NCBI GenBank assembly: GCA_039933845.1
Contig: JBDTNH010000001.1
Coordinates: forward strand, 5,426-69,425
DNA length: 64,000 bases
Direction: 5' to 3'
Source: Gemmatimonadota bacterium
GTDB taxonomy: Bacteria; Gemmatimonadota; Gemmatimonadetes; Gemmatimonadales; GWC2-71-9
Below the pieces are notes generated by a model. That model saw only the letters and a list, made by a program, of their open reading frames with translations, ran no database searches and was not told the origin of the DNA. This document shows, piece by piece, positions 8,482-45,921 of the stretch (positions within the stretch are counted from its first letter, which is position 1; the number at the start of each line of letters is the position of its first letter). The position numbers and the translations under genes were made by a program.

Positions 8482-10109
8482 GGGCCGTTGGTCACCAGCG
8501 ATGGCAGAAATGTCGGTGGCCGCCGCATCTTGGTTGCCTGCTCGAACGCAAAGGCCATCGCGAGCAGCGGCCCCTCCTGCCACGCCGTACCGAAGAGCGA
8601 CATCCCCACCGGCAATCCCGAGACAAAGCCGGCAGGAATGGTGATGCTCGGATATCCCGCGCGCGCCGAGTGCCCAGATTCGCCGCCACTGTCGTGATCG
8701 CCGTTGACCACATCAGTGGTCCATGCCGGCCCGCCGGTCGGCGCCATGATCGCATCGAGTCGGTCGTGCAGGAGGGTGGCATCGATGCCATCGGCGCGGG
8801 CACCCTGCAGCATCTTGGTGCGAGCATCCAGATAATCGGCGTCGTCGATGCCGGGGCGCGCGTTCGAGGCGATCAGCGTCTCCTGCCCGAAGTACGGCAT
8901 CGCCATCGCGGCATTCGCTTCATTGAATGCGATCACATCGGCGAGCGAGCGCACCGGTGCCTTGGCTCCTCGCGCCGCGAGATAGCGGTTGACGCCATCC
9001 TTGAACTCGACCTGCAGCACCAGATGCTCCCAGGCACCGATGGTCCGGGGCGAAGTGATCTTGACCGGGTCGATGATCACCGCCCCCGCCGCGCGCATCG
9101 CCTTGATCGCCTCCTCCATGATGGCGTCGACCTTCTCGTGGAAACCGAACGCATCGCGCAGGATCCCGATCCGCTTCCCGCGAAGTCCGTCGGTGCGCAG
9201 GAAGGTGGTGTAGTCGTTCCGGGAATGTCCCGCGGAGCCAGCGGTTGCGCCGTCGCGCGGATCGGCACCGGTGAGAGCGCCGAGCAGCATGGCGACGTCG
9301 GAGACGGTGCGACCCATCGGGCCGGCGGTGTCCTGCGTGGACGAGATCGGGATGATCCCGGAGCGACTCCAGAGACCGACCGTCGGCTTGAGGCCGACGA
9401 CGCCGTTGGCGCTCGAGGGACAGACAATCGAACCATCGGTCTCGGTCCCGATCGCAACGGCACAGAAACTCGCCGACACTGCCGCGCCCGATCCCGACGA
9501 CGAACCGCACGGGTTGCGGTCGAGCACGTACGGGTTCCGTGTCTGGCCGCCGCGACTGCTCCAGCCGCTCGACGAACGGGTCGAACGGAAGTTGGCCCAC
9601 TCGCTCAGGTTGGTCTTGCCGAGCACGATCGCACCCGCCGCGCGCAGCCGTTCGACGATGAAGGCGTCGCGTGTCGCGCCGGGCCCCACCAGTGCCAGTG
9701 CGCCGGCCGTCGTCATCATCTTGTCGCCGGTGTCGATATTGTCCTTGATCAACACAGGGATCCCGTGCATGGGACCGCGCACCCGACCGGCTCGGCGTTC
9801 GGCATCCATCGTGTCGGCGATCTCGAGTGCGTCGGGGTTCCGTTCGATCACGGCATGCAGCCCACCACGCGGCGCGTCAAGCAGAGCAATCTGCCGCTGG
9901 TACCGTTCGACCAGATATCGGGACGTCCACCGCCCGGAGGCCATGCCCTCCGCGAGCTCCGCGACGGAGAGTTCGTCGAGTTCGCCACGACGGGACGCCA
10001 GGAATTCGGCGTGGGCCGGTACGTCAGCGTCAGTCCCCCCCCCATGATGTGGTAGCAGGGGGACGATGCCCCCCAGGGCGGCGGTGTGCAGGAAGTGTCG
10101 GCGTTCCAT
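8478..10109 (-). CDS. Amidase (amidase-signature family), exported
   Basis: ORF 8478..10439. ATG 10109 gives MERRHFLHTAALGGIVPLLP. Amidase-signature core GIPVLIKDNIDT...GGSSSGSGAAV. The start overlaps the MFS stop by 1 nt (TGATG). Confidence 0.85.
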   Translation of the reverse strand: MERRHFLHTAALGGIVPLLPHHGGGTDADVPAHAEFLASRRGELDELSVAELAEGMASGRWTSRYLVERYQRQIALLDAPRGGLHAVIERNPDALEIADTMDAERRAGRVRGPMHGIPVLIKDNIDTGDKMMTTAGALALVGPGATRDAFIVERLRAAGAIVLGKTNLSEWANFRSTRSSSGWSSRGGQTRNPYVLDRNPCGSSSGSGAAVSASFCAVAIGTETDGSIVCPSSANGVVGLKPTVGLWSRSGIIPISSTQDTAGPMGRTVSDVAMLLGALTGADPRDGATAGSAGHSRNDYTTFLRTDGLRGKRIGILRDAFGFHEKVDAIMEEAIKAMRAAGAVIIDPVKITSPRTIGAWEHLVLQVEFKDGVNRYLAARGAKAPVRSLADVIAFNEANAAMAMPYFGQETLIASNARPGIDDADYLDARTKMLQGARADGIDATLLHDRLDAIMAPTGGPAWTTDVVNGDHDSGGESGHSARAGYPSITIPAGFVSGLPVGMSLFGTAWQEGPLLAMAFAFEQATKMRRPPTFLPSLVTNGP

Positions 10110-14776: not shown

Positions 14777-16165
14777 CTCAGGCGCCAGCGGCGCCGCGCG
14801 CGACCGCCGACCACGCCGGAGCGCCAGGACCCCGAGCGTGAGATTCAGCGCCAGCGACCCGAGTACCGTAAGGTAGAAACCGCGTGGATTCTCGACCCCC
14901 TCACCGGGCAGCATCGCCAGCAGTACCGAACCGGCCGTGACCACCAGCCCCAGCCCGCCGACGAGGATCGCCCCGGGCGACCCACCCGGCACCCTGCGAT
15001 GCACTGGGTGGACCGGCTCATGCCGGAGCTTGACGAGGGCTCCGAAGATGTACAGGAACGGCAAAAGGAAGATCACGATCTCGAGCGCCACCAGCATCCG
15101 GTAGACCTGTTCGACCGGACCGCCCGCGACCGAGAGCACCACCAGGATTGCCGCCGGGATGGCCATCGTCAGGATTGCGATGTGCGGGGTGTGCCAACGG
15201 GGATGGACCGCGCCGAACCGAGCCGGCAGGTAGCGATCGAGTCCGACGACAAACGGCAACCGTGCGGCCGCCGCGAGCCAGACGCTGAGCGTGCCCACCG
15301 ACATGATCGCCAGCAACAGCGAGACCAATGACGTTCCCACCGCCGCGGCCCGTGGTCCCCCGACCGCCTCCGCGCCAAGCCGCACCACGTCGGAGAAGCC
15401 GTGTAGCCCACTGAGCGCTGAACCCGGCAGGATCACCAACATCGCGACCGAGGTGACCACATACAGGACCGTGATGAGCCCCCCGGCCGCAAGCACCGCC
15501 CGCGGCACCGTGCGGCGGGCATCGCGCACCTCGTCGCCGAGCAACGACCCGGATTCGAAACCGGCGAACATGTAGGCGAGTGTCGAGAGGAAGAGGAGGC
15601 CCTCGAGTCCACCAAGCCGCGGTCGCATCGACACGACCGTGAACGTCGTCGCCGATCCGGTCCGGATCGCGACCACAGTGGCGAGAACCGCCAGACCCGC
15701 CACGGTGACCAGCGACGCGATAACCGATACCGTGGTGACCCGAGCTGCTCGTCGGAGTCCCAGCAGGTTGACCGCCGTGATCAGCCCCAGGAGCACCAGC
15801 GACGTGGCCCCCTGAAAGCGCGGATCGCCGGCCAGTCCAGCCGTAGCGGGGAGGATCCCCGCGACCTGCGCGCTCGCGAACATCAGGACGCTGGGTAGAT
15901 AGACAACCGTCGAGGTCCAGTAGGCCCAGCCCGCCAGGAAGGCATGGGTGTCACCGAAGGCACGACGAACCCAGAGATAGAGACCCCCTTCGCCGGGCTC
16001 CCTCGAGGCGAGGTCGATCACCGTGAGCGCCAGCGGGAGGAAAAAGCAGACGAGGCTGATCGCCCACCAGCCGACGATTGATGGGCCGACGGCGGCGGCG
16101 ACCGGCACAAGGCGGATCACGAAGATCGCCGCCACGTAGAACCAGACCAGGTCCCGGAACCGCAA
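14768..16165 (-). CDS. APC-family amino acid permease
   Basis: ORF 14768..16330, about 12 TM helices. The upstream part overlaps gpx, so the start is placed at TTG 16165 (LRFRDLVWFYVAAIF...). Start uncertain. The 3' end overlaps asnB convergently by 9 bp. Confidence 0.7.
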   Translation of the reverse strand: MRFRDLVWFYVAAIFVIRLVPVAAAVGPSIVGWWAISLVCFFLPLALTVIDLASREPGEGGLYLWVRRAFGDTHAFLAGWAYWTSTVVYLPSVLMFASAQVAGILPATAGLAGDPRFQGATSLVLLGLITAVNLLGLRRAARVTTVSVIASLVTVAGLAVLATVVAIRTGSATTFTVVSMRPRLGGLEGLLFLSTLAYMFAGFESGSLLGDEVRDARRTVPRAVLAAGGLITVLYVVTSVAMLVILPGSALSGLHGFSDVVRLGAEAVGGPRAAAVGTSLVSLLLAIMSVGTLSVWLAAAARLPFVVGLDRYLPARFGAVHPRWHTPHIAILTMAIPAAILVVLSVAGGPVEQVYRMLVALEIVIFLLPFLYIFGALVKLRHEPVHPVHRRVPGGSPGAILVGGLGLVVTAGSVLLAMLPGEGVENPRGFYLTVLGSLALNLTLGVLALRRGRRSRAAPLAPESP

Positions 16166-16188
16166 GACCGCTGGGAGGCCACTACGGC

Positions 16189-16728
16189 TCAGCGCAGGTG
16201 CTCCGCTCGTGGCGCTTCGAGCGCCGCCCGGAACGCCCGACTGGCAACCAGCGCCTCGGGAGTCGTCCGGGACGCGAAGCGTTCGCGCACCATACCGTCG
16301 CGGCCGACCAGGAACTTGGTGAAGTTCCACTTGATCGACCGACTCCCCAGAATGCCTCGCTCTTCGTCTTCGAGCCAGGTAAACAGCGGGTGGGCCTCCG
16401 GGCCGTTGACCTTCACCTTGGAGAACATCGGGAAGCTGACGTCGTAGCTGGTCTGGCAGAAGGTGGCGATCGTCGCCTCGTCGCCCGATTCCTGAGACCC
16501 GAATTGGTCACACGGGAAGCCCAGCACCGCCAGCCCATCGTCCCGGTAGAGGCGATAGATCGCCTCCAATCCCCGATACTGGGGCGTGAAGCCGCAGGTG
16601 CTGGCAACATTCACCACGATGACGACCTGACCGCGGAAGTCGGCCAGCCGGAGGGGCTCCCCCGAAATGGTGGTGGCCTCGAAGTCGTACAGGGTCTGGG
16701 GCTGTGCGGGCGCGTCTGGAGTAGGCAT
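16189..16728 (-). CDS. gpx: Glutathione peroxidase (Cys-type)
   Basis: ORF 16189..16797, ATG 16728. Motifs VVNVASTCGFTPQY, LGFPCDQFGSQE and WNFTKFLV. The catalytic residue is encoded by TGC, not TGA. Confidence 0.85.
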   Translation of the reverse strand: MPTPDAPAQPQTLYDFEATTISGEPLRLADFRGQVVIVVNVASTCGFTPQYRGLEAIYRLYRDDGLAVLGFPCDQFGSQESGDEATIATFCQTSYDVSFPMFSKVKVNGPEAHPLFTWLEDEERGILGSRSIKWNFTKFLVGRDGMVRERFASRTTPEALVASRAFRAALEAPRAEHLR

Positions 16729-16748
16729 GGAGGGAATCTCCCTTGGGG

Positions 16749-16776
16749 CCCCCCGACCCGCCACCCCCCACCACCC
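16749..16776 (-). other. G-quadruplex-capable G-tract in the gpx leader
   Basis: The minus strand reads GGGTGGTGGGGGGTGGCGGGTCGGGGGG, with at least four G3+ tracts and 1-3 nt loops. It lies 21-48 nt upstream of the gpx ATG. Confidence 0.4.
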
Positions 16777-16810
16777 TTGCCACTTGCCACTTGCCACTTG
16801 CCACTTGCCG
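16776..16810. repeat. Heptanucleotide tandem repeat, CTTGCCA x5 (last unit CTTGCCG)
   Basis: Direct read: cttgcca at 16776, 16783, 16790 and 16797, and cttgccg at 16804. Upstream of gpx (sense TGGCAAG). Confidence 0.9.
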
Positions 16811-16873
16811 GACCCGGTGGTACCTTGATTGCACGGTTAGTGTGCCAGAAGACGATCGAGTGTGCTTGACGTC

Positions 16874-16904
16874 AGGGGCCCAGATATGACTTGGGTCCCT
16901 TTTT
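16874..16904 (+). terminator. Orphan intrinsic-terminator-like hairpin plus T6, about 140 nt upstream of the csp ATG
   Basis: GGGGCCCA (16874-81) pairs with TGGGTCCC (16891-98): 8 bp including one G-U, 9-nt loop, followed by TTTTTT (16899-16904). There is no plus-strand gene upstream for about 2 kb. Confidence 0.4.
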
Positions 16905-17041
16905 TCTTGGTGCGACGATCGTGAGCAGCAATGGGCGAGTGCCCCGGCTGTGGCAGGACCCAACTCCGCGGGGCCAATCGCGGAGAACAGTCGGAACTGG
17001 CGGCCTTGCCGCTCAACGACACAGCATCAAAGGATAGACCA

Positions 17042-17248
17042 ATGCGTACAACCGGCACCGTGAAGTGGTTCAACGACGCCAAGGGCTTCGGCTTCATCAC
17101 CCCCGAGAATGGCGAAAAGGATTGTTTCGTCCATCACTCGGCGATCCAGGGCAGCGGCTTCAAGTCGTTGGCCGAGGGCGAGCGGGTGGAGTTCGATATC
17201 GTCCAGGGCGCCAAGGGCCCGGCCGCTGAGAGCGTCGTCAAGCTCTAA
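17042..17248 (+). CDS. cspA: Cold-shock protein, CspA family
   Basis: ORF 16931..17248, ATG 17042. [35 protein letters not shown] contains the RNP1 (KGFGFI) and RNP2 (VFVHH-like CFVHH) motifs. Confidence 0.9.
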
Positions 17249-17282
17249 GCAGTTCGCCCCTTCGGGGGCACACGGAGCACAG

Positions 17283-17318
17283 CAGCCCGTCCGGCATCAC
17301 GCCGGGCGGGCTGTTTCG
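17283..17318 (+). terminator. Rho-independent terminator of csp
   Basis: CAGCCCGTCCGGC (17283-95), loop ATCAC, GCCGGGCGGGCTG (17301-13). This is a 13-bp stem with one G-U, followed by a short TTTCG. A small GCCCC-TTCG-GGGGC hairpin precedes it at 17256-69. Confidence 0.6.
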
Positions 17319-17329
17319 CGCTCGGGCCA

Positions 17330-17425
17330 GCGGCTGAGAGCCGCTTCTCGGCACTGAGGGCGGGTAAACCCGCCTTGTCCCGAGGAATATCCCCATTTGA
17401 GGCTTGAGCCTCTTTCAGTGCCGAG
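17330..17425. ncRNA. Structured intergenic element (hairpin plus three-way junction); strand and function unknown
   Basis: Hairpin GCGGCT-GAG-AGCCGC (17330-44). A perfect 11-bp outer stem, CTCGGCACTGA (17347-57) with TCAGTGCCGAG (17415-25), encloses hairpins GGCGGG-TAAA-CCCGCC (17359-74) and GAGGC-TTGA-GCCTC (17399-412). Confidence 0.3.
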
Positions 17426-17464
17426 CCCAGGCTTCAGCCTGTGGACGGCTCGTGGGCTCCCGCT

Positions 17465-18013
17465 TTACAGCGAATCGAACGTGATCCTAGTACCCGCGCC
17501 CGTGGCATCCCCACCGCCATCCGCCGGCTGACCATCCTTGTCGAACGAATCGTAGTGCACGGTGGAGGTGTAGCTGTTCCCATCGGCCGAGAGCGTGATG
17601 TGCTCCGTGAGCACGCCGTGACCGGCCGGCAGCCAGCCACCGGCGGCTCCCTCGCCATCGGCGGGTCCTGGCGCCCGCGTCTGATAGAAGACGTATCGGG
17701 TCTCGAACTGGCGCGGCCCCGTCTTCCGCCACACCCCATACGCCGGCGGGGAGGAGTTCGCGGCCTCGTCGTAGTTCGACGACTCCGTCATCGTCCCACC
17801 GACGTTGTAGGCGTACAGGAATTCGAGGTCGGTGACGCCTGACAACACGCCCTTGTCGAACTGGATCTTCGAGCGCCAGGCCCCCGTCAGCTCACTGCCC
17901 GGTACGACGACTGCCGCACCACCTTGAGCCTGCGGCAACCGCTGGAGCTCACAGCCGGAAAGCGTCACCATCACCAGGAACGTCACCAGCCCGGTGCGGA
18001 ATTGGTCCGTCAT
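17465..18013 (-). CDS. Hypothetical lipoprotein
   Basis: ORF 17465..18040, ATG 18013. MTDQFRTGLVTFLVMVTLSGC lipobox. No family recognised. Confidence 0.5.
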   Translation of the reverse strand: MTDQFRTGLVTFLVMVTLSGCELQRLPQAQGGAAVVVPGSELTGAWRSKIQFDKGVLSGVTDLEFLYAYNVGGTMTESSNYDEAANSSPPAYGVWRKTGPRQFETRYVFYQTRAPGPADGEGAAGGWLPAGHGVLTEHITLSADGNSYTSTVHYDSFDKDGQPADGGGDATGAGTRITFDSL

Positions 18014-18036
18014 GCGATGTCCTTGATACCGGCCGC

Positions 18037-19173
18037 TCACCGGTGTGGCAGGTTGGGAATGATCCGCTCGGCGTTACCCTGGTAGAGCTTCTTGAGCACC
18101 ACATCCGGAAGGTCCAGACCGTAGAGCTTCCAGAACGCGTGGTAGTCGCGGTAGTAGTCGAAGTATTCGTCGGCCGTCTCGAAGACGCGCCAGTAGTAGG
18201 GATATTCCGATGGTTGGAACGAGTCCTTCCCGAACAGGATGCGATCCTGGTACATCACGAAGAAGTCGTGCGCGGTGCGCGGCTGACGCCCGAGGTCGTA
18301 GAGAATCGCGCCGACCTCCGCGTTCACGTTGGGATACTTGTCGAACAACCGACCAAGCTTGGCCAGATCGTCGGCGTACCAACCCATATGCGCCAGGATC
18401 CAGGTGGTCCGCGGGTGTTTCGCGATCATCCGCTCCCGCTCGGCCATCAGTGTATCGAAGGTTGGAAACCGCGAACGATCGTTGAACCGCCGGCTCGGGA
18501 ACAGCGCCATCTCCAGCCAACGCTCGTTGGTGAAGTCGAGCGGCTCGAAGAACGCCGCGGGATCGGCCGTGTGAATGAACACCGGGACCCCGAGATCGGC
18601 CGCCGTCTCCCAGACGATGTCGAGCTCCGGGTCGTCGAGATGCAGACGCGCACCATCGGCACCACGCGCCGAGAGACCGAACCCCTTGTTGAGCTCGCCG
18701 ATGCCGACCGCTCCTGCTGCGACATCGCGCTTGAGTTGCTCGGCGAGCTTCACGCCGTCGCCCTGCTTCACGACGCCGAGGTCGAGCGTCGTGAAGAAGA
18801 CGAAGCGATCACTCAGGCCGGCTGCCTTCACTGCGGCGATCTGCCCGGTGAGACGCTCACCGGATGTTCCGTTCGCCTGGACCATGACGCCGATGTTGAG
18901 CGAGTCCATCGCGGCCAACACCGTCCGGATCGTGGCGGCATTGTCGAGCCGCGGCGGATGACCATGCACATCGACCGCCGGATACTTGGCGCGCGGCACG
19001 GGGTGCTGGGGCACCACAAGGCGACTGCGCGGATGGTACTCCACGATGGTCGGTGGTGGGATCGTGGGTTGTCGATCCTGGGCGGTGAGCTTCGGCGAGC
19101 AGAAGATCACCGCAAGCGTGGTCGCGGTGATGCTGGTACGGATGGCGAAGGAGCGAACTGGGGGTAAAATCAT
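18037..19173 (-). CDS. Amidohydrolase-family metal-dependent hydrolase (amidohydrolase_2-like), exported
   Basis: ORF 18037..19176 (GTG 19176 or ATG 19173). Signal-like N-terminus. AVDVHGHP metal motif, ...FIHTADP..., ILAHMG. The start overlaps the vapC stop. Confidence 0.7.
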   Translation of the reverse strand: MILPPVRSFAIRTSITATTLAVIFCSPKLTAQDRQPTIPPPTIVEYHPRSRLVVPQHPVPRAKYPAVDVHGHPPRLDNAATIRTVLAAMDSLNIGVMVQANGTSGERLTGQIAAVKAAGLSDRFVFFTTLDLGVVKQGDGVKLAEQLKRDVAAGAVGIGELNKGFGLSARGADGARLHLDDPELDIVWETAADLGVPVFIHTADPAAFFEPLDFTNERWLEMALFPSRRFNDRSRFPTFDTLMAERERMIAKHPRTTWILAHMGWYADDLAKLGRLFDKYPNVNAEVGAILYDLGRQPRTAHDFFVMYQDRILFGKDSFQPSEYPYYWRVFETADEYFDYYRDYHAFWKLYGLDLPDVVLKKLYQGNAERIIPNLPHR

Positions 19174-22862: not shown

Positions 22863-24788
22863 CTAGTTCAGGTGTGCCCGCTGGGCGAGCTCCAGAAATC
22901 GGGGATCGTCGCGGTACGGGGCGAACATCGAAAGGTACTTCAGAAAGAACAAGCCCCAGTTGTGACCCTCAACGGCACGATCGAGCCAGCGGTACATGTC
23001 CTCGGGTCGGGCCAGACTGCCATAGACCATCGCGATGGCCAACGGATCGACATATCCGTGGTTTGCGCCGACGCGTTCGAGGCTGTCGGCAACGCCGACC
23101 GCCGCAGCGCGCCGCCCGCACATCGCCCAGGTGGCGGCGACGACACCGCGCGTATATTGGTCCGTGATCTTGGGGCTCTGCAGCGAACGATGGCGATCCA
23201 GCCAATCTGCCGCGGCGAGGGCCTCGCCGCACTGCCCCCTGGCCAGTTCGAGATCGACTCGCTCGGCCCGCGCAAGTTCCTGCAATGAATCGCGCTCCAG
23301 GACTTCGCTCAGTGCACGATCGGCGGCGTCGAAACGTCCGTCAAGTCGATAGACTGTCGCCATGCGGACGCCGACAATCGCCGCCACCGGCGCCAGCTGC
23401 TTGGCACGGCCGATCGATCCGATGGCGGAATCGATCTCCCCGCGGGCCAGATGGACCCAAACCCTGAACAACCACGGCTCGAACCGTGTGGAATCGATCG
23501 CCGAGGCACGATTGAACTCCTGCTCGGCACCATCCCAATCCTGATCATTGAACAGTCGGGCCATTCCCCGCGCGATGTACGCGGTGGTGGCCCGAGGGTC
23601 GAGGGAGATGGCCTTGTCGGCCGCGTTCGCGGCGGCCTGGAATTCCGACCGCGGGTTCTGGGTACCGAACAGGGCACACGTCGCACGCGCCATCGCCAGT
23701 CCCGCAAACGCCTCCGTGTAGAGGGAATCACGAAACGCGGCATCGGAATACTCCTCAACGGCACGTGCACAATCTTGCCGACGCAACACCAGGTCGGCGG
23801 CATCGGCAACCAGTCGCGTGGCCGCGGAGTCCGGCACATGGGATCTGATCGGTTGGGCCGCCTGGTTCGGTCGTGTTGTCAGCATGACCGCCGCGGCGAT
23901 GCCCGAGAGGCCGATCGCGATCGCAGCTGCAGGCCACCAACGGGGCCGCGCTGGTGCCAACGCGCTCTCCATCAGCGCGACTCGGAATGCCGCCGCCGTC
24001 TCGAATCGCCGCTCCGGCGCCTTTTCGATGGCCGTCATCACGGCACGATCGATGTACGCCGGAATCTCTCGTCGCCGTCGCGACGGTGGCGCCGGCTTCT
24101 CAGTGATCACCTTGGCGACGATCGCCTGGGCCGTGGGTCCGGTAAACGGGGTTGTACCGGTCAGCGCCTCGTACAGCGTGACGCCGAGGGCGTAGATATC
24201 GGTGCGGGCATCGAGCACACGCTCACCGAGTGCCTGTTCCGGGCTCATGTATTGCGGGGTACCAATCGAGATGCCCGTTCCCGTGAGCCGACTGCCGGCG
24301 GTCACTTGGTCGATGGCGATTCCGAAATCGGCGACCAGCGCCTGACCATCCTGGAGGAGAATGTTTTCGGGCTTGATGTCCCGGTGGACGACGCCGTGGC
24401 GATGTGCGTGGTCGAGTGCCGAGGCGACATCGCTGGCGATGCGGACGGCGTCCGCGATCGGCAACCGCTGCTCGCGTGTGATGCGCTCGCGAAGCGACTC
24501 GCCTTCGACCACCGGCATCACGAAATAGAGCAGTCCGTCGGCCTCCCCGGAATCGAAGAGCTGGAGGATATGGGGATGGTGCAGACCGGCCGTGGTCTTG
24601 ATCTCAGCCAGGAACCGTTCGGCACCGATCGCTGCCGCGAGTTCGGGACGCAGCACCTTGATCGCGACATCGCGATCGTGCTTGATGTCATGCGCGAGGT
24701 ACACCGTCGCCATGCCACCCTGGCCAAGCTCGCGCTCGATGGTGTACCTGTCCGCCAGCGCTGTGCGGAGCCGATCGAGCGCACTCAC
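22863..24788 (-). CDS. Hanks-type Ser/Thr protein kinase with TM segment and C-terminal TPR-like region
   Basis: GQGGMATVYLAHD, VAIKVL, HRDIKPENILL, VADFGIA, GTPQYMSPE. TM segment WWPAAAIAIGLSGIAAAVML. The GTG start overlaps the upstream kinase stop (GTGA 24785-88). Confidence 0.85.
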   Translation of the reverse strand: MSALDRLRTALADRYTIERELGQGGMATVYLAHDIKHDRDVAIKVLRPELAAAIGAERFLAEIKTTAGLHHPHILQLFDSGEADGLLYFVMPVVEGESLRERITREQRLPIADAVRIASDVASALDHAHRHGVVHRDIKPENILLQDGQALVADFGIAIDQVTAGSRLTGTGISIGTPQYMSPEQALGERVLDARTDIYALGVTLYEALTGTTPFTGPTAQAIVAKVITEKPAPPSRRRREIPAYIDRAVMTAIEKAPERRFETAAAFRVALMESALAPARPRWWPAAAIAIGLSGIAAAVMLTTRPNQAAQPIRSHVPDSAATRLVADAADLVLRRQDCARAVEEYSDAAFRDSLYTEAFAGLAMARATCALFGTQNPRSEFQAAANAADKAISLDPRATTAYIARGMARLFNDQDWDGAEQEFNRASAIDSTRFEPWLFRVWVHLARGEIDSAIGSIGRAKQLAPVAAIVGVRMATVYRLDGRFDAADRALSEVLERDSLQELARAERVDLELARGQCGEALAAADWLDRHRSLQSPKITDQYTRGVVAATWAMCGRRAAAVGVADSLERVGANHGYVDPLAIAMVYGSLARPEDMYRWLDRAVEGHNWGLFFLKYLSMFAPYRDDPRFLELAQRAHLN

Positions 24789-27043
24789 CTCTCCTCCCCC
24801 GCATCAGCAAGCCCGACGCGCTCAACCATCGGCCAATACCGCGGGTCGTCCCGGATCGGATCGAGTCGCGGATGCGTGCGAAGGAACATCAATCCTGAAG
24901 CCTTCTCGGCAATCGCCGTCTCGAGCCAATCGAACGCAGCGTCGATGTCACCGAGTGCCGCGTGCAACGCACCGATACCCCACGCCGAAACGACACGACT
25001 GCCCCGTGCCGCCGTCAGCTCCGCCAGAATCCGCCGTGCCTCGGCTTCGTTGCCAGATGCGGCCTCGAGGTGGGCAAGACCGAATGAGGGTCCCGCGATC
25101 CCGCCCGCGAGGCGGCGCCCGTCTTCGTAGGCGGCCCGTGCCTCGTCGAAGCGCCCCAGAGCCTCGAGACTTCGTGCCATGTCAGTGTGCGCGCCGTCGA
25201 AGCGCGGATCCAACTCAATCGCCATCTTGTAGTGGAACACCGACTTCTGAAATTCGCGTGCATAGTAGAGCGCGTCGCCGATGCCGGTGCGAATGAGCGA
25301 GGAGAGCGGGTCGAGTTCGATCGCGCGATTTGCCGCGGCAACCGACTCGTCGATGCGCCCGACTGCCGAGAGTGCCCGCGACATCATGGCGTGAGCCCAC
25401 GCATGCCCGGGGTTGAGCTCGACCCCCTTCTGCAACAACTCCATGCCACCGACGACGTCGCCACTGACCGAGGCGATGAAACCAAGCGAGGACCAGGCAT
25501 CGGCTAGCTCGGGGTCCAGCTCGCGGGCGCGTTGCGCCGCCGTGGTCGCCTCCGCTCCAGCCTCGGCTGGCGAGGCCATACCGCGCACGGCCCGGATGAT
25601 CTGGCAGTCGGCCAGCGCCGACCACGCCAACGCGTACGTCGGGTCCAGCTCGAGTGCACGCCGAGCGTGACGCAGCGCCATGTCCAGCGCGTCCTTGGTG
25701 CCGGCGAACATCGAGTGCCTCGCCTTCAACACTTCGAGGTGTGCCTCAGCATTGACGACCTGTCGCCGTGCCAGCTGCCCAGCTTCGGCCGGCGTCAGCT
25801 GCACCGCGATCTCGCGCGCCACCATCGCTGCCAATTCACTCTGGAGCGTCAACACATCAACCAGATCGCGATCATAGCGATCCGCCCAGAGGGTCTCGTC
25901 CCTGCGAGCAGCAATCAGCTGCACGCTCACCCTGACCCGATCACCGACCAGGTGGGCCGATCCCTCGAGCACCGCGTCGACGTTCAGCTCGCGCGCGATC
26001 TCGGGAAGGGACTTGGTCGAGCCCTTGTATTGCATCGCGGAGGTTCGCGAGATGACCCGCAATGCCTTGATGCGAGACAGGTCGGAGATGATCGCCTCGG
26101 TCATGCCATCGACGAAGTACTCCTGCGTCGGATCACCCGACGTGTTCCGGAGTGGCAGCACGGCAATCGAACCGATCCGATCCATGGCGGGCGCGGGCAC
26201 AGCAGGGGTGAGCGACGAGGAGGTGCTGCCACCGCGCAAGGCAGTGGCAACGGCTGCCGCACTGGTGGGCCGAGCCGAGGGTTCCTTGCTGAGGCATGCC
26301 ATCACCAGTCGGTCGAGGTCGTCTGGCGTGTCCGGCCGGAGCGACTGCACGGTGGGCGGCGCGCTTCCGAAAATCTCGAACATCAGCGCTTCGGCTCGTT
26401 CCTTCACGAACGGACGGCGACTGGTACACATCTCGAAGAGCAGCACCCCGAGTGCGTAGACATCGGTCAGCGGCGAGTCTGCGTCGCCGGTCAACTGTTC
26501 CGGTGCCATGTAGGGCAACGAGCCGAGGATCATCCCGGTGCGGGTGAGCTTGTTGGCGCCCGCATCGTTCAGGAGCATCGCGATCCCGAAGTCGAGGATC
26601 TTCGGCTGGCCGGTCGGCGTCAACATGATGTTGCCAGGCTTCAGGTCGCGGTGAACAATGTTGTGGGTGTGTGCATCGTGCAATGCGTCGGCGATGGCAG
26701 CGCCGACGATGCGGACCTCAGCAAGCGGTATCGGTCCCATGGCCATGCGTGCCTCGAGGTCGCCACCCGTGACCAGCTCCATCACCAGGTACGGCGTCCC
26801 CTCGTGCGCATCAAAGTCGAACACCGTGGCGATGCCGGGATGGGAGAGCCGCGAAAGGGCCAGCGCTTCGCGGCGGAATCGCGCCTGCGTGTCGGCGTCG
26901 GCGATGGTGCCTGGGGCGAGCAACTTGATCGCGACCTCACGGTCGAGATTCGCATCGTGCGCACGCCACACCTCACCCATCCCGCCGACACCGAGTTGCG
27001 TACGGAGGTGGTAGCGACCGAGGGTCGTGCCGGCGCGGGTCAT
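24785..27043 (-). CDS. Hanks-type Ser/Thr protein kinase + TolB-N-like module + TPR repeats
   Basis: GVGGMGEVWRAHD, VAIKLL, HRDLKPGNIML, ILDFGIA, GSLPYMAPE. Then IAVLPLRNTSGDPTQEYFVDGMTEAIISDLSRI, and TPR-like repeats to the C-terminus. Confidence 0.85.
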   Translation of the reverse strand: MTRAGTTLGRYHLRTQLGVGGMGEVWRAHDANLDREVAIKLLAPGTIADADTQARFRREALALSRLSHPGIATVFDFDAHEGTPYLVMELVTGGDLEARMAMGPIPLAEVRIVGAAIADALHDAHTHNIVHRDLKPGNIMLTPTGQPKILDFGIAMLLNDAGANKLTRTGMILGSLPYMAPEQLTGDADSPLTDVYALGVLLFEMCTSRRPFVKERAEALMFEIFGSAPPTVQSLRPDTPDDLDRLVMACLSKEPSARPTSAAAVATALRGGSTSSSLTPAVPAPAMDRIGSIAVLPLRNTSGDPTQEYFVDGMTEAIISDLSRIKALRVISRTSAMQYKGSTKSLPEIARELNVDAVLEGSAHLVGDRVRVSVQLIAARRDETLWADRYDRDLVDVLTLQSELAAMVAREIAVQLTPAEAGQLARRQVVNAEAHLEVLKARHSMFAGTKDALDMALRHARRALELDPTYALAWSALADCQIIRAVRGMASPAEAGAEATTAAQRARELDPELADAWSSLGFIASVSGDVVGGMELLQKGVELNPGHAWAHAMMSRALSAVGRIDESVAAANRAIELDPLSSLIRTGIGDALYYAREFQKSVFHYKMAIELDPRFDGAHTDMARSLEALGRFDEARAAYEDGRRLAGGIAGPSFGLAHLEAASGNEAEARRILAELTAARGSRVVSAWGIGALHAALGDIDAAFDWLETAIAEKASGLMFLRTHPRLDPIRDDPRYWPMVERVGLADAGEER

Positions 27044-27091
27044 TGGGGGGTGCTCATAGGTCGCTGCCGAGGAATCCCAGGTCGACGGTGG

Positions 27092-27946
27092 TCAAGGAAT
27101 CGGGGCACGGCCGGCAATCATCGTGATGTTGTCGCTACCACCGCGTTCGAGCGTCACGTCGAGTAGCGAGCGGCAGAGTTGCTCGGATGATGTCATCGTC
27201 TTGATCTGCTCCGCGATTTCTGCATCGCTCACATGCTTGGTGAGTCCATCGGTGGTCAGGAAGACGACACAACCACGCGGGATCTCGATGCGACTGACGA
27301 CCGGCACGGCTTCGTCGCTGCCGATGGCGCTCGACAGGATGTTGCTCAATGGCGACCTGCTGGCGCGATCGGCGGTCAGGATGCCCTGATCGACCAGCCC
27401 CTGCGCAATCGTTTGGTCGCGGGTAATCTGCGTCAGTGTGCCCTCCCTGTAGACATAGCAACGGCTGTCGCCCACCTGGGTCACGTACATCCACGGGAAT
27501 ACCGCGACGGCGAGCGTCAGGGTGGTGGCCATCTTGGCGTCGGGCTGGAGCAATTGCTGCTTTTTCACCGCCGCGTGTGCCTCCATCGCCGCCCCGGTCA
27601 ATGCCTTGTGAAATTCGGTGCCCGTCGCCTCACCGGCGTCGTGATACGATTGCATCGACGTGGTGACGTACTGCGTGATGGTGGCGAGTGCCACCTCGCT
27701 CGCCTTGCCACCGCCCGATCCGCTGCCGACCCCGTCGGCCACCAGCATGTAGGTCGCGATTCGTTCGCCCCGGAGTGGCAGCGAATCAGGTTCAGGAAGC
27801 GAGGTGCCATGCACCACCACCTGCTGGTGCACGGTGCAGAGCATGAAATGATCCTGGTTCTCCTTGCGCACCCGGCCGATGTGGGTAAGGCCAAACAGGT
27901 CCAGCTCGACATCGTGCGGCCGTGCCCACTGCAATTCAGTTGGCAT
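27092..27946 (-). CDS. PP2C-family Ser/Thr protein phosphatase
   Basis: 284 aa. GLTHIGRVRKENQDHF, VADGVGSG, ...LTTDGLTKHVSD..., GGSDNITMI (PPM motifs). Confidence 0.85.
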   Translation of the reverse strand: MPTELQWARPHDVELDLFGLTHIGRVRKENQDHFMLCTVHQQVVVHGTSLPEPDSLPLRGERIATYMLVADGVGSGSGGGKASEVALATITQYVTTSMQSYHDAGEATGTEFHKALTGAAMEAHAAVKKQQLLQPDAKMATTLTLAVAVFPWMYVTQVGDSRCYVYREGTLTQITRDQTIAQGLVDQGILTADRASRSPLSNILSSAIGSDEAVPVVSRIEIPRGCVVFLTTDGLTKHVSDAEIAEQIKTMTSSEQLCRSLLDVTLERGGSDNITMIAGRAPIP

Positions 27947-28160
27947 CCATCTTCGCTTTCAGCTCCTGAAGCCGGTTCTCCACCACGATCAGGGATTGGC
28001 CTGCCGCCTCGGGCCGGTCGGGGTGCAGTGCCTTGATAGCCACCGTGCGGTGGTGTGTGATGTCCTTGGCGAGCAACACCGTCGCCATGCCACCGTGCCC
28101 AAGCTCGCGCTCGATGGTGTAGCGGTCGGCGAGTGCAGCCTTGAGCGATTCGATACTCAC
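27936..28160 (-). CDS. 74-aa kinase N-lobe fragment (Gly-loop + VAIK, ends after the alpha-C-equivalent region): microprotein or pseudogene remnant
   Basis: MSIESLKAALADRYTIERELGHGGMATVLLAKDITHHRTVAIKALHPD... aligns with the first ~45 residues of the neighbouring kinases and then terminates. Good GC3 codon usage. The GTG start overlaps the upstream kinase stop (GTGA 28157-60), and the 3' end overlaps the PP2C start by 11 nt. Confidence 0.45.
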   Translation of the reverse strand: MSIESLKAALADRYTIERELGHGGMATVLLAKDITHHRTVAIKALHPDRPEAAGQSLIVVENRLQELKAKMDAN

Positions 28161-31144
28161 GGCTTGAGTCCCGGCTGTGGCACCACATCACCATTCTTCG
28201 TGCCGGCCACGACCCGACGCGCCTCGGCGATCATTGGCTGCTGGCTCGGAGCCGGCTGATCAACAGCGTCAAGGAACCCGGTGAGTTGTCGCACCGCTCC
28301 GGCGTGATCGCCGGCCTCCTCAAGCGCCATGCCGCGTTCGAACATGACTGTCGGCCCAAGAGCAAACTTGGGCCCGAACGTTCTCGGCGCATTCAATGCC
28401 CCATCGATCCACATCAAGTAGCGCTCGACCTCCGCCGGTTTGCCCTTAGCCCGGAGTGCCCGGGCAATCACCAGCCGATTGACCATTTCGGCCGCGAACC
28501 CGAAATCGCCATCGCGCATCGCGGCGTCGCTGATCGCACGCACCGAGTCGGCGGCACTTGGCACACCCTGTTTCACCTGCCAGAGCGCATTGAGCGATCG
28601 CGCGACATGCAGCGCCCTGGGACTCGACTCGCGTCCCAATGCTGAGATCACCTCACGTAGCTTCGGCTCGTCGTTGCTGACAATCGCCATCAAGCCGTCG
28701 AACCAGCGCAGTTCGATCCGGTCGCGCGGCAGCTCCTCGGCGCCGGGCATCGCCTGCGCGCGCTGCACCGCATCGGCGGCCGTCGCCGGAGCGACCGTAC
28801 CGAGCCAGGCACCGATCGTCGCAATCCGCGCGGTACTGAATCGGTTCTCTACCGTGGTGTTTGCCGACTCGTTCCGCTGCAACGCCGCCAGGCCGCCGGT
28901 CCAATCCCCGCGCGCCGTCTTGAGCAGCCCCTCGCCGAGGTACGATTCGGTCAACGCCTCACCGGAGTAGATCCCTTCTGCGCGCGCCCGTTCGACCACT
29001 GCCATGCGCTCCGGGAGCCGAAGCTTCGAGAATCCCATCAGCCCCGACCACGCCAGCGTCGGATTGCCGATCGGAAGGTCGCCAAAAGCGCGCGCCAAAG
29101 CGATTCCGTCTTCTGCAGGGAGCTTCACAGTGCTGTCGAGCATCGATTGGTTGAGATCGGCCTGCCACGTCATCACTCGGCTGAACACTCCCCCAGCGAG
29201 CGCGGCACCACTCCGGAAGGATTTCACCGCCTGTTCCTGCGCTCCGAGTGCCTCTTCGACCACCGCCTTGTGGAACCAGACGTCGGAGTTGTCGGGCGTC
29301 AGCTTGGCGAGTCGGTCGAGGATCGGCACCGTCTCGGCGAGGCTGATACCGTACACGGGACCGCTGTGGATGATGTCGTCGACCCCCGACATCAGGATCG
29401 GGGGATAGTCGGGGTAGCGTTGGATCAACGCACGCCATGCTGCGGCTTGAGCTGGGAGCGGCGTCGTCATGCCGGTTGCTTCGAGCCAGAGCCGCTCGCG
29501 CTCGGGCAACTTGTGGGCGAGCAGCAGCAGCCGCGCGTGCGCCGTTTCATCGACAGCTTGCAGGTTCCAGCTACGCGCAAAATCGTAACGCAGATATGCC
29601 TGGACAAAGTTGCTGTCGAGTTCGAAGGCACGACGGTACTTCTGGAGCGCAGCCTCGACTTCGAGCTTGTAAAAGTGGCGCTCGCCGTCGAGGAAGGTGC
29701 GCAGCGCCTCGAACGATTGGGTGGTGAGCCCGGTCAGTACCGGCGAGGGCGCCTCGCCGCGCCGCCATACCTGCCTGAGCACTTGCCAGGTGAGTGAATC
29801 GGTGAGTGCTGCGATGTCGCCGACCGGCGCCAGTGCACTCGCCTTGGCGATCGCGGTATCAGAACCGATCGGATAGAGCGCCACCGATGCCCGTACCTGG
29901 CCCGATTCGCCGATCAACGTTCCGGTAAGCACACTGCCGGCGCCGAGCCGCGTGGCGATTTCCCGTGCCTGGGCGAGTGGCAATGGCGAGGGAGCGTCTC
30001 TCGTATTGAGCAATAGCGTCGCTGCATCGACTGTGCTGAGTACGCCGACGCCATCGAGCGTGGTGCTGAGCGTCACGACCAGATCCTGACCGAGCCGGCT
30101 GAGTGAGGTATCGGAGACGGCTGAGAGCGGCATCACCGCGATGCGTTCGGCGCCCTCCGCCACAGTGGGCGCTGAGGAACTGCCCCGACCGATTCCCCAC
30201 CAGATAGCGCCGGCAACACCCAGGACGGCAGCGGTCGCGAGCAATGCCATGGTCCGTCCACTCATGCGGGATGTGGGCAACGCCTGCGCACTGTCAGCGA
30301 GCCGCGCGGCGAGCGATGCAGCATCCGGGCGCTGATCGGGGCTCTTCGCGAGACACGCCGCGATGAGATCGGTGAGCACACGCGGGACATCGCCACGGAC
30401 CGTGGTCACCGATGGTGCCGGCGTGGTGACGTGTGCAGCAATCACCTGCTGAGCGCTGGCGCCCGTGAAGGGCGGGTGACCCGCCAGCATCTCGAAGAGC
30501 ACGCAACCCACCGCATAGACGTCCGACCGACCATCGAGCTCCGACGCGGCGGTGGCCTGTTCCGGACTCATGTAGGCCGGGGTACCGATCGACGTCCCCG
30601 ACTGGGTCAGGGCCTGCGATCCCGTGGCGTCCATCGCGCGGGCAATGCCGAAGTCGGCCACGACCGCATGGCCGCCATCGAGCAGGATGTTCTCCGGCTT
30701 GATGTCGCGGTGGATCACACCCTTCGCATGCGCATGGGCCAGGGCGTCGGCGACCTCGCGGGCGATCTGCCGGGCTTCGTCGATCGGCAACTGGCGATCC
30801 CGGCCAAGTCGCTCACGAAGGGACTCGCCCTCAACCAAGGGCATGACATAGTAGAGGAAGGAGTGCGGCCCCTCGCGGCCTTCGGCCTGCTCGACGAACA
30901 CCTCGCCCGAGTCGTGCAGCGGCAGGATGTGTGGGTGCCGAAGATTGGCTGTCGTCCGAATCTCGACCAGGAATCGCTCGGCCCCGACCGCTGCGGCCAA
31001 CTCCGGGCGGAGCACCTTGATCGCCACATCACGGTCGTGCTTGAGGTCGTGCGCCAAGTAGACGGTCGCCATGCCACCTTCACCAATCTCGCGCTCGAGG
31101 GTGTAGCGGTCGGCGAGTGCGCTTCGGAGACGGTCGATGGTCAA
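28157..31144 (-). CDS. Hanks-type Ser/Thr protein kinase with TM segment and ~650-aa extracytoplasmic/helical-repeat region
   Basis: ORF 28157..31234. TTG 31144 with AGGAG 5 nt upstream gives (M)TIDRLRSALADRYTLEREIGEGGMATVYLAHD, matching the paralog N-termini. VAIKVL, HRDIKPENILL, VADFGIA, GTPAYMSPE. TM segment MALLATAAVLGVAGAIWW. Confidence 0.8.
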   Translation of the reverse strand: MTIDRLRSALADRYTLEREIGEGGMATVYLAHDLKHDRDVAIKVLRPELAAAVGAERFLVEIRTTANLRHPHILPLHDSGEVFVEQAEGREGPHSFLYYVMPLVEGESLRERLGRDRQLPIDEARQIAREVADALAHAHAKGVIHRDIKPENILLDGGHAVVADFGIARAMDATGSQALTQSGTSIGTPAYMSPEQATAASELDGRSDVYAVGCVLFEMLAGHPPFTGASAQQVIAAHVTTPAPSVTTVRGDVPRVLTDLIAACLAKSPDQRPDAASLAARLADSAQALPTSRMSGRTMALLATAAVLGVAGAIWWGIGRGSSSAPTVAEGAERIAVMPLSAVSDTSLSRLGQDLVVTLSTTLDGVGVLSTVDAATLLLNTRDAPSPLPLAQAREIATRLGAGSVLTGTLIGESGQVRASVALYPIGSDTAIAKASALAPVGDIAALTDSLTWQVLRQVWRRGEAPSPVLTGLTTQSFEALRTFLDGERHFYKLEVEAALQKYRRAFELDSNFVQAYLRYDFARSWNLQAVDETAHARLLLLAHKLPERERLWLEATGMTTPLPAQAAAWRALIQRYPDYPPILMSGVDDIIHSGPVYGISLAETVPILDRLAKLTPDNSDVWFHKAVVEEALGAQEQAVKSFRSGAALAGGVFSRVMTWQADLNQSMLDSTVKLPAEDGIALARAFGDLPIGNPTLAWSGLMGFSKLRLPERMAVVERARAEGIYSGEALTESYLGEGLLKTARGDWTGGLAALQRNESANTTVENRFSTARIATIGAWLGTVAPATAADAVQRAQAMPGAEELPRDRIELRWFDGLMAIVSNDEPKLREVISALGRESSPRALHVARSLNALWQVKQGVPSAADSVRAISDAAMRDGDFGFAAEMVNRLVIARALRAKGKPAEVERYLMWIDGALNAPRTFGPKFALGPTVMFERGMALEEAGDHAGAVRQLTGFLDAVDQPAPSQQPMIAEARRVVAGTKNGDVVPQPGLKP

Positions 31145-31291
31145 GAAGACTCCTGCTGGAGACCGCAGAGTGGGAGGGAGTAACCCCTTATGATACGAGT
31201 ATCCGCCGAGGGCGACCAGTCCGGACTCCAACAACCTGCTGCCATCTTCGGAGAGCTGGCCGTCCCTCTGGTGAATTCATGGAGGTCATGC

Positions 31292-33298
31292 ATGCCGCGC
31301 CACCTCGTCCTGCTGCTCACCATCGCTACCGCAATCACCGGCCTGTCGGCACAGTCGGTCCCGGCCCCTTGGCTCGACCCCGCCGCCACGGCGTCGATCG
31401 GCCGCCCGATTCCGGGGCCGGTATTCGAGTCGCCGGAGTTCACCCGGGCGGTCACGGCGGGGACGCGGACCCGCACCGGCGTTCCGGGGCCGCGCAACTG
31501 GGTCCAGCACGCCCGCTACGACATCGCGGCCACCCTTGATCCCGTGTCCGGGCGAGTGTCAGGCACCGAGTCGGTGACCTATCTCAATCGGTCACCAGAC
31601 ACGCTCGACGTCCTCTTCGTCTATCTGCGCCAGAATGTCTATGCGTCGGGCTCGCCGCGCCGCGAGACGTTGCCGATCACCGGTGGAGTGACGCTCACTC
31701 GGGTCACGGTTGGCGGGCAGATACGCTCCGCCCCGGATACCACCGCGGGTCGGCGTGGCCGCAACACTCCGGACAGCTATCAGGTGCAGGGAACGGTCAT
31801 GTTGTTGCCGCTCGCTACCCCGCTGCTGCCGGGCGACAGCGTACCGCTGGCATTCGCGTGGTCGTACGCCCCTGCGCCGACGCCGTCGGATGGCCGTCAA
31901 GGACGCGACGGCAACGTCTTCTTCATGGGCTACTGGTATCCGCAAATCGCGGTCTACGACGACGTCAACGACTGGGTGATCGATCCGTATATCAGTGGCG
32001 CCGAGTTCTACATGGACCCGGCCGACTACGATGTGCGACTCACGGTGCCGTACGGTTGGACGGTGGGCGCCACCGGAAGTCTTCAAAACCCGGGTGATAT
32101 GTTCACCGCGGCGGCGCGCGACTCACTCGCTGCGGCACGGATCAGCGGACGCGTGGTTCGGATGTTCGAGCCCGGGCGCGATCCGAACGCGGTGTTCCGG
32201 AAGACCGGTCCAACCAGCACCTGGCATTTCGTCGCGAAGGACGTGCGGGACTTTGCCTGGGGTGCCAGCAACCAACAGGCGTGGGACGCGACCCGCGCGC
32301 TGGTGGAGCGCTCAGGGAGTGCGCCCGACACCGTCGACATCCACTCGTTCTTCCGGCTCAGCAGCCGAGCCGCCGCGTGGAATCTGGGTGGCGCGCGGTT
32401 CACCCGAGACGCGATCGCGACCCTCTCGACCACGCTCTGGCCCTACCCGTGGCCGACGATGAGTTCGATGGAGGGGGTGCTCACCGGCGGTGGGATGGAA
32501 TATCCGATGATGACCCTCATGCAGCCGTGGAGCGACACCCTTTCACTGGCCGGCGACCTGATGCACGAGACGGGGCACATGTGGTTCCCGATGCAAGTCG
32601 GCTCCAACGAGACTCGGCATGTCTGGATGGACGAGGGACTCACCCAATACGATGTGGCGCAGGCGATGAAGCTGATCTACGGCGCCCCGCGCAGCGGTGG
32701 CCGTCCGAACGACTCCGAGGAGGGCCAGCGTGAGCAGTATCTGATGCTCGCCCGGGATGGCCTGGACAACTCGTTGATGATCGACGGCAATGAGTACCCG
32801 CAATACCTCTACGCGCTCAACTACAACAAGACCGCGCAGGTGCTGGTGGCGCTCCGGAGCATCATCGGCGCAGACCGGTTCCACGAGGCGCTGGTGGCCT
32901 ACGGCCACGCCTGGGCCGGCAGGCATCCCGAGCCATTCGATTTCTTCAATGCGATGAGTCAGGCGGCGGGACAGGATCTTTCATGGTTCTGGTCGAGCTG
33001 GTTCTACCACGGCTGGCCGCTCAACCAGGCGATCGAGAGCGTCACGGCGGTTGGCGACACGACCACGATCACCGTGGTCGATCGCGGCATGGCGCCGATG
33101 CCGGTGAGGCTCCGGGTGACACACGCTGATGGCTCCGTGGAGAACGTCGAGTTGTCGGTACAGGTGTGGCTCAACGGGTCGCGGCGAGCGGTGACCACAG
33201 TGGTAGCACCGTCGAAGGTCACCCGGGTGGAGATCGATGCGGCCGGTGACTTTCCCGACATGGACCGGAGTGACCAGGTGTGGTCGCGAGAGCACTAG
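31292..33298 (+). CDS. M1-like zinc metallopeptidase, secreted
   Basis: ORF 31190..33298. ATG 31292 has GGAGG 6 nt upstream. Signal MPRHLVLLLTIATAITGLSAQS. HETGH-x18-E (MHETGHMWFP...WMDEGLTQY). Confidence 0.8.
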   Translation: MPRHLVLLLTIATAITGLSAQSVPAPWLDPAATASIGRPIPGPVFESPEFTRAVTAGTRTRTGVPGPRNWVQHARYDIAATLDPVSGRVSGTESVTYLNRSPDTLDVLFVYLRQNVYASGSPRRETLPITGGVTLTRVTVGGQIRSAPDTTAGRRGRNTPDSYQVQGTVMLLPLATPLLPGDSVPLAFAWSYAPAPTPSDGRQGRDGNVFFMGYWYPQIAVYDDVNDWVIDPYISGAEFYMDPADYDVRLTVPYGWTVGATGSLQNPGDMFTAAARDSLAAARISGRVVRMFEPGRDPNAVFRKTGPTSTWHFVAKDVRDFAWGASNQQAWDATRALVERSGSAPDTVDIHSFFRLSSRAAAWNLGGARFTRDAIATLSTTLWPYPWPTMSSMEGVLTGGGMEYPMMTLMQPWSDTLSLAGDLMHETGHMWFPMQVGSNETRHVWMDEGLTQYDVAQAMKLIYGAPRSGGRPNDSEEGQREQYLMLARDGLDNSLMIDGNEYPQYLYALNYNKTAQVLVALRSIIGADRFHEALVAYGHAWAGRHPEPFDFFNAMSQAAGQDLSWFWSSWFYHGWPLNQAIESVTAVGDTTTITVVDRGMAPMPVRLRVTHADGSVENVELSVQVWLNGSRRAVTTVVAPSKVTRVEIDAAGDFPDMDRSDQVWSREH

Positions 33299-33326
33299 GC
33301 GATTCACATTCCGCTGCAGTCGGCTT

Positions 33327-45838: not shown

Positions 45839-45921
45839 TGGCGTCCCGGTCGGAGGAATCTGGCGTGGGAAGCCCTGAAGAAACGCCAAAATCGCGGCCA
45901 CCGCAAGGCGGAGGCGAACCC

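Follow-up and report, generated by a model that had tools for sequence, protein, structure and literature searches.

Hanks-type Ser/Thr kinases and PP2C phosphatases are encoded together in operons such as those of PknB/PstP and PrkC/PrpC. The 64,000-nt stretch of Gemmatimonadota DNA analyzed here (the window) carries an array that resembles these operons, with a PP2C gene co-oriented among eukaryote-like kinases and tight or overlapping gene boundaries. On the minus strand, the upstream kinase is followed by a 74-codon ORF (the stub), PP2C, the kinases k2 and k3, and a penicillin amidase (Table 1). The question raised by this locus is what a 74-codon ORF that begins as a kinase is doing between a kinase and a phosphatase gene. 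The initial annotation proposed a remnant of a deleted fourth kinase, a retained microprotein, or a translational coupling device for PP2C. Our analysis favors the first of these options, with a probability of approximately 0.85: the stub would have no function and would derive from a fourth Hanks-type Ser/Thr kinase, of the Pkinase plus PD40-propeller type and approximately 890 aa long, the head and tail of which were joined in frame. It is probably not a new small regulatory protein. The other explanations were graded independently; two of them (a coupling leader and a two-gene chimera) refine the remnant model, while two (a functional microprotein and an assembly artefact) are alternatives to it.

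Table 1. Features of the kinase/PP2C array, with positions in the window
Feature	Positions	Strand	Description
Upstream Ser/Thr kinase	28157..31234	minus	longest ORF, 1025 aa; C-terminal part with weak TPR matches below threshold
74-codon ORF (stub)	27936..28160	minus	probable kinase head-plus-tail remnant; NCBI annotation: hypothetical protein ABI542_00175, Gemmatimonadota MAG
Head, codons 1-61	27978..28160	minus	leader, Gly-rich loop GHGGMATV, VAIK lysine, degenerate 'PDRPEAAGQSLIVVE' (family: 'PELAAVIGAERFVVE')
Putative deletion junction	27977..27985	minus	TGGTGGAGA, 9-nt direct repeat present at the alpha-C start and in the C-terminal tail of full-length relatives
Tail, codons 62-71 (NRLQELKAKM)	27948..27977	minus	homologous to the extreme C-terminus (NWFEELKAKM) of Pkinase+PD40 kinases
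Last three codons and stop (G ATG CCA ACT GA)	27936..27947	minus	PP2C 5' sequence in another frame; homology with the PP2C gene of locus L001 begins here
PP2C phosphatase gene	27092..27946	minus	ATG abuts the kinase tail; Shine-Dalgarno region of relatives missing
Kinase k2	24785..27043	minus	752 aa, TPR; downstream kinase
Kinase k3	22863..24788	minus	641 aa; GTG start in a GTGA overlap with k2, as in the stub

The stub translates as VSIESLKAALADRYTIERELGHGGMATVLLAKDITHHRTVAIKALHPDRPEAAGQSLIVVENRLQELKAKMDAN. Its coordinates, its strand and its GTG start, which lies within a GTGA overlap with the stop of the 1025-aa kinase ORF, were as first described, and no alternative start codon occurs between the upstream in-frame stop and this GTG. 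The stub ends with a TGA located 11 nt into the PP2C gene. Its GC content by codon position (0.68/0.40/0.80) resembles that of its neighbors (0.69/0.50/0.77), in agreement with the coding-like codon usage reported before. The window contains 348 ORFs of at least 74 aa; thus, an open frame of this size is unremarkable. As the initial annotation had stated, the C-lobe is missing in every frame, and no propeller sequence was found 3' of the stub either, all frames having been checked. The catalytic loop (HRD), the DFG motif and the activation segment are absent from the stub, which ends at residue 74, and from the sequence beyond it in any frame. Without a catalytic loop, the stub cannot be a kinase; unlike the kinases of the known Hanks-type kinase/PP2C operons, it comprises only beta1-beta3 and one alpha-C residue. 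No Pfam match was obtained for the antisense or alternative-frame ORFs of the region (27864-28259 and 27233-28036 on the plus strand, 27598-28194 on the minus strand), and no Rfam match on either strand of 27000-29000.

The head reaches the start of the alpha-C helix. The Pfam Pkinase profile matched residues 14-62 through its positions 1-49 only (of 263; E = 3.3e-4), with 20.6 bits, below the whole-domain gathering score of PF00069 (Hanks-type; 31.7 bits). The N-terminal leader, the Gly-rich loop and the VAIK lysine noted initially are all present, with GHGGMATV and VAIK representing subdomains I-II. The head is 49-51% identical to the heads of the two neighboring kinases.

The initial annotation extended the kinase similarity through a segment alignable to the alpha-C region. 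This alignment stands at the alpha-C start, where 'IVVE' pairs with 'RFVVE', but not for the residues NRLQELKAKM, whose assignment to alpha-C was rejected on the basis of their homology to the C-terminus of PD40-propeller kinases. Among the 42 genomic loci fetched by their PP2C genes, several Gemmatimonadales kinases of approximately 890 aa end in LVENWFEELKAKMGGK or close variants (L009 14697-17381, L024 15437-18187 and L008 3594-6284; the tail is also carried in L013, the counterpart listed with L008, and in L003, L011, L036 and L015), and the domain make-up of these relatives is Pkinase plus a PD40 (TolB-like) beta-propeller. In pairwise BLASTP comparisons, each full-length PD40 kinase gave two segments: the head of the stub aligned with the N-terminus, and the second-best segment, residues 51-71 of the stub, aligned with the last 20 residues of the subject in every case (e.g., 1273-1293 of 1295, E = 0.004; 1027-1045 of 1047, E = 0.005). 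Additionally, using a profile built from the tails of seven relatives, none of them from the window, we searched all 1358 six-frame stop-to-stop segments of the window, and only the stub was matched (20 bits, E = 3.2e-5), the runner-up having E = 10. The stub follows the tail motif (L/V)VEN(W/F)xxELKAK with a W-to-R substitution, and, like the relatives, it has 3 residues between the end of the match and the stop. What the stub shares with the Gemmatimonadales Pkinase+PD40 kinases is a homologous head and the last 13 residues or so; what it lacks is the equivalent of residues ~64-881, namely the bulk of the kinase domain, the linker and the entire propeller. Pfam detected no PD40 match within the stub, and the missing propeller showed no significant homology elsewhere in the window (best E = 0.25).

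The full-length relatives suggest how head and tail may have come together. In L009 and L024, the head site reads TTC GTG GTG GAG ATC and the tail site CTG GTG GAG AAC TGG, with the repeat of Table 1 common to both, while L008 carries TGGTCGAGA at both its head and tail sites; at its junction, the stub reads ATC GTG GTG GAG AAC CGG. The presence of an in-phase 9-nt repeat at both join points explains an in-frame deletion of ~820 codons. Simulated deletions between the in-phase repeats removed 818-827 codons and left products of 72-76 aa, and the products of the L009, L024 and L008 types aligned with the stub from the first to the last residue, with no internal gaps and 39-43 identities. Based on these data, we infer that a single parent kinase once stood between the 1025-aa kinase and the downstream genes, and that it would have lost ~820 codons (roughly 2.4-2.5 kb) in frame, so that the start of alpha-C (...RFVVE) became linked to the final dozen codons (VE NWFEELKAKM...). 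Slippage or end-joining at the two direct repeats, which share a reading frame, is the likely cause.

Microhomology has been linked to deletions in bacterial pseudogenes, with a resulting bias toward frame-preserving deletions (PMC6054270). The stub resembles the remnants produced in this way in that the middle of the gene appears to have been lost between short identical sequences, repeats in codon phase account for a deletion in multiples of three, conserved residues seem to have drifted later, and the event is lineage-specific. It differs from them in the very large size of the deletion (~820 codons), in the complete start-to-stop ORF left behind, which has been annotated as a hypothetical protein, and in the fusion of its 3' end to the start codon of the next gene.

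This fusion would constitute a second junction, at which the PP2C ATG was set directly after the tail ('...AAG ATG G'), so that the old frame ends at a TGA 8-10 nt into PP2C. In the closest relative, L001 (PP2C 93% identical in amino acids), homology with the window begins one base before the PP2C ATG, and all of the sequence upstream is unrelated; thus, the last three codons and the stop of the stub are out-of-frame PP2C sequence. The same TGA is present in L001 at the same place. Relatives, L001 included, have GGAGG-like sites 6-12 nt upstream of PP2C, whereas the window has only GCGAAGATGG, which indicates that the junction between tail and ATG is derived in this lineage.

Both ends of the stub had been described as overlap-coupled, a condition that a decaying remnant would not be expected to maintain. 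This argument fails at the start because that boundary, the GTG in its GTGA overlap, would be the original start of the parent gene, and tandem kinases routinely overlap by 4 nt in this region. It also fails at the stop, since the tail is joined straight to the PP2C ATG and the frame then meets a TGA that L001 has as well. Four-nt overlaps with the same start architecture as the stub are found in the window at k2/k3 (GTGA, 24785-24788) and between a 1084-aa and a 914-aa kinase (43091-43094).

PP2C clearly occupies different places in the window and in L001, and the homology of the two genes begins precisely at the ATG. This relocation is also compatible with a somewhat different origin of the remnant, in which head and tail came from two separate kinases, the tail donor being a PD40 kinase, and were joined by the rearrangement that moved PP2C in; the possibility that head and tail derive from two kinases counts against the single-gene version. 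In L015, a PD40-propeller ORF ending in VMVENWFADLRARVKR is located 63 nt upstream of PP2C and is preceded by a frameshifted kinase head, and recombination does occur at conserved heads, the chimeric k3 of L001 (see below) being one example. Nevertheless, the occurrence of the 9-nt repeat inside single full-length genes offers a simpler, one-step origin, and the k2 orthologue of L024 is immediately preceded by a full-length PD40 kinase, matching the position of the remnant. Head similarity does not discriminate between the subfamilies. We regard this two-gene origin as doubtful, and its product would be a remnant either way.

The distribution of the stub was determined in 71 PP2C loci (42 genomic and 29 metagenomic, the window included). 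The stub is present in none of the 70 other loci, the closest relative among them, and none of the 29 metagenomic loci, all without the stub, is closer than 84%. In a search of 5.8 billion proteins, the sole full-coverage match was the stub itself (100% identity, 74 aa); the other matches were kinase heads covering 38-95% of the query, and the head-plus-tail architecture was not found elsewhere among these proteins. Exact-sequence searches of a contig index with the stub and with PP2C gave no match. L001 has no kinase sequence upstream of its PP2C gene, which sits on the other side of an M1-peptidase gene. No orthologous locus was found with an intact parent gene at the exact position of the stub; thus, the deletion was reconstructed from paralogues and distant relatives, a point that we count against the remnant model.

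Truncated heads of other kinds were encountered in the same searches. Directly upstream of the PP2C gene of L041 (which starts at 10001), a 51-codon kinase-head stub (9823-9975) ends in VAVRVLRQQPPTFP with its own stop; it has VAVR in place of VAIK and no tail motif, and an 862-aa Pkinase+PD40 kinase precedes it. Shared descent of this stub and that of the window was rejected, given that the junctions differ and the L041 stub has no tail, and the two apparently arose in independent events. The protein matches P0002-P0072 include dozens of stand-alone ORFs of 42-130 aa in which the same kinase head is followed by unrelated sequence, some of them on long contigs (P0022, 5.5 Mb; P0060, 134 kb). 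In Gemmatimonadota, kinase heads that have been truncated or frameshifted seem to be frequent debris, although many of them stem from short contigs or from long-read frameshifts.

The head of the stub bears some marks of decay. Scored with a profile of 57 full-length heads, the stub reached 80.8 bits against 123.4 +/- 9.7 bits for these heads, i.e., ~4.4 sd under the family mean. The Tyr that follows the Gly-rich loop in 98% of heads is Leu in the stub, and this Y-to-L change is accompanied by others at columns conserved in 91-100% of heads: V to A after the VAIK lysine, L to R in PEL, and ERF to QSL. The dN/dS comparison that had been proposed was made pairwise (NG86) against paralogous heads, in the absence of orthologues, and gives a moderate signal only: relative to its nearest head, the stub has a dN of 0.155 (dS 0.54), above the median nearest dN of functional heads (0.057), but 5-7 of 60 functional heads are equally divergent, which places the excess in the top ~10%. 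When neutral drift was simulated with substitutions only, at 0.1-0.2 per site, a stub-like ORF remained open and kept its start codon 25-50% of the time. Considering this survival and the 348 ORFs of this size or larger, the intact frame is not evidence of selection.

Using AlphaFold2 with 25 aligned heads, we modeled the stub alone (mean pLDDT 71.7). The model contains a helix at residues 3-10 and strands at 14-23, 26-33 and 38-45, which form a three-stranded sheet (residues 14-45, pLDDT 78-86); residues 46-59 are of low confidence and are followed, in the tail, by a short strand and a helix at 64-73, the junction and tail having pLDDT values of 52-62. As modeled, the stub is a piece of the N-lobe rather than a complete ATP-binding lobe.

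These data bear on the second of the initial options, in which the 74-aa peptide would act as an N-lobe decoy, dimerization partner or substrate mimic for the flanking kinases or PP2C. The stub is still open and keeps its start codon, the Gly-rich loop and the VAIK lysine, features that we count against the remnant model and in favor of a functional microprotein; the predicted sheet and terminal helix, and the existence of a second head stub upstream of a PP2C gene in L041, point in the same direction. However, the stub is unique to this genome, with no head-plus-tail homologue in either the proteins or the loci searched, its closest relative does without it, and family-invariant residues have been lost from it. 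Most of alpha-C, beta4-5 and the whole C-lobe are missing, and confidence is low at the junction and in the tail. The L041 stub is a different object (another junction, no tail, VAVR instead of VAIK), and truncated head ORFs are common debris in the phylum. The literature consulted, which dealt with Gemmatimonadetes kinase paralogues, microhomology deletions and translational coupling and did not target the topic directly, contained no bacterial stand-alone kinase N-lobe peptide. We consider the microprotein option highly improbable.

It could also be argued that the metagenome assembler merged reads of different kinase genes, given that the source of the window is a MAG and that these genomes contain many copies of the kinase head. 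Against this, the repeat at the junction is only 9 nt long, far under the k-mer sizes of assemblers, and the contig is 83 kb long. Moreover, when the head of the stub is compared with all other heads of the window and of the 71 loci, no fewer than 14% of non-synonymous and at least 34% of synonymous sites differ, and so it is no mosaic of known copies. An assembly artefact is thus extremely improbable.

We return to the remnant model and to what the remnant might still do. No promoter-like site or terminator was found by scanning between the genes, which suggests that the stub is co-transcribed with its neighbors. It is probably still transcribed and translated within the kinase-phosphatase operon, from the parental start, and ribosomes finishing it may help to start PP2C, while the peptide itself would have no role. 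Termination-reinitiation coupling is known to need overlapping or very closely spaced genes (PMC10666635). As in the coupled pairs described there, the stop of the stub lies a few nt past the start of the downstream gene, and the stub additionally overlaps the preceding gene by 4 nt. In contrast to them, the overlap with PP2C measures 11 nt, where 4 or 1 nt is usual, relatives do not share the pair, and the upstream partner would be a remnant rather than the subunit of a complex.

On this basis, a passive role of the stub in coupling PP2C translation is possible, and termination-reinitiation may contribute to PP2C expression. A stronger version, close to the third of the initial options, would have the remnant now kept by selection because PP2C lost its own ribosome-binding site upon joining the kinase tail. 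PP2C would then rely on reinitiation by ribosomes that have read the stub and terminated 8-10 nt beyond the ATG. The 11-nt overlap of the stub's stop with the PP2C start, the missing GGAGG-like site and the lack of a promoter-like site between the genes favor this version, as does the Shine-Dalgarno duplex energy of PP2C (-6.9 kcal/mol vs a median of -9.3 kcal/mol in relatives), a weakness that leaves room for selection on translation of the stub and is counted against a plain remnant. Nevertheless, the Shine-Dalgarno score of PP2C is as weak or weaker in 13 of 46 relatives, none of which has a stub, and the arrangement is conserved nowhere, either in the 71 loci or in the protein search. Additionally, the Shine-Dalgarno score of the stub's own start is weak (-4.0), the PP2C start is not masked by an unusual RNA structure (z = -0.87), and neutral persistence accounts for the open frame. 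Both the retention of the stub as a leader and the dependence of PP2C on reinitiating ribosomes are, in our estimation, rather unlikely. Very unlikely is the bolder proposal that the remnant is becoming a new small protein acting on the flanking kinases or PP2C, or at least an obligatory translational leader. If it were true, a peptide would be made from the parental start, with, e.g., its beta1-beta3 sheet pairing with a kinase N-lobe, or, at minimum, a relocated PP2C gene devoid of its own ribosome-binding site would have recruited the stub as its obligatory leader.

In contrast to the known Hanks-type kinase/PP2C operons, the array of the window is highly rearranged between relatives. Orthologues of k2 (82-84% amino acid identity) are present in L005, L009 and L024; in the last of these, the kinase upstream of k2 is the PD40 kinase with the tail motif, and ~35 nt upstream of k2 are common to L024 and the window. 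This order fits an ancestral succession of PD40 kinase and k2 into which PP2C would have been inserted later.

Comparison of PP2C in the window (27092-27947) and in L001 (10000-10848) places the gene at different sites: within the kinase array in the former, and with a glycine-rich 192-aa ORF on one side and the M1 peptidase on the other in the latter. The homology stops a few codons before the stop. No PP2C scar was found in the window at the L001-type position (33284-33326). The k3 gene of L001 is chimeric (L001 12900-13900 compared with window 31275-30275 and 24921-23921): its upstream region and leader match the 1025-aa kinase of the window (62-87%), and from the ALADRY head onward it matches k3 (87-97%). 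The switch falls at the conserved head, and the block from the kinase body through the stub and PP2C to k2 is absent between the two parts, a layout as expected from recombination between conserved heads. Elsewhere in L001 (3535-4053 vs window 43091-46345), the orthologue of the 1084-aa kinase lacks ~2.37 kb (window 45643-43277) of its central part, leaving a frameshifted head stub (IEVSRIRAALADRYQIERLLG...) ahead of the next kinase. L024 contains a single 1295-aa ORF with two kinase heads, at residues 24 and 403 (14300-18187), apparently the outcome of an in-frame fusion of a complete Pkinase+PD40 kinase to the kinase domain of another gene.

A further association of kinase heads, with a ~650-nt element, was observed at L009 2354-3050, L009 13978-14690, L003 14032-14700 and L064 ~10030. 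At these sites, three different heads are cut at one point, between GGCATGGCCAC and GAGCTC, giving products that end in GGMATSSSLKRRLG, and the same element follows. The element contains REP-like hairpins (GTCGCTAAAGCGAC), its opposite strand encodes an IS200-like Y1 transposase (Pfam Y1_Tnp, E = 9e-16), and the whole looks like a REP/RAYT unit associated with fixed-site truncation of kinase genes. In weighing the remnant model, we counted the other deletions and recombinations at kinase heads in the same arrays in its favor.

A gene remnant is a known kind of object, and the stub serves mainly as a caution for small-ORF discovery. Its importance for biology is small, but it documents a case in which a large in-frame deletion between 9-nt repeats would produce a neat ORF, fit to be annotated as a 'hypothetical protein', in which the composition is still coding-like and the boundaries are still coupled. 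Intact boundaries and codon usage cannot tell a micro-gene from a head-to-tail remnant. A cheap test is to compare the C-terminus of a short ORF with the C-termini of the family matched by its N-terminus. For the Gemmatimonadales, the kinase/PP2C arrays are fluid, with the conserved ~150-nt kinase heads acting as recombination points.
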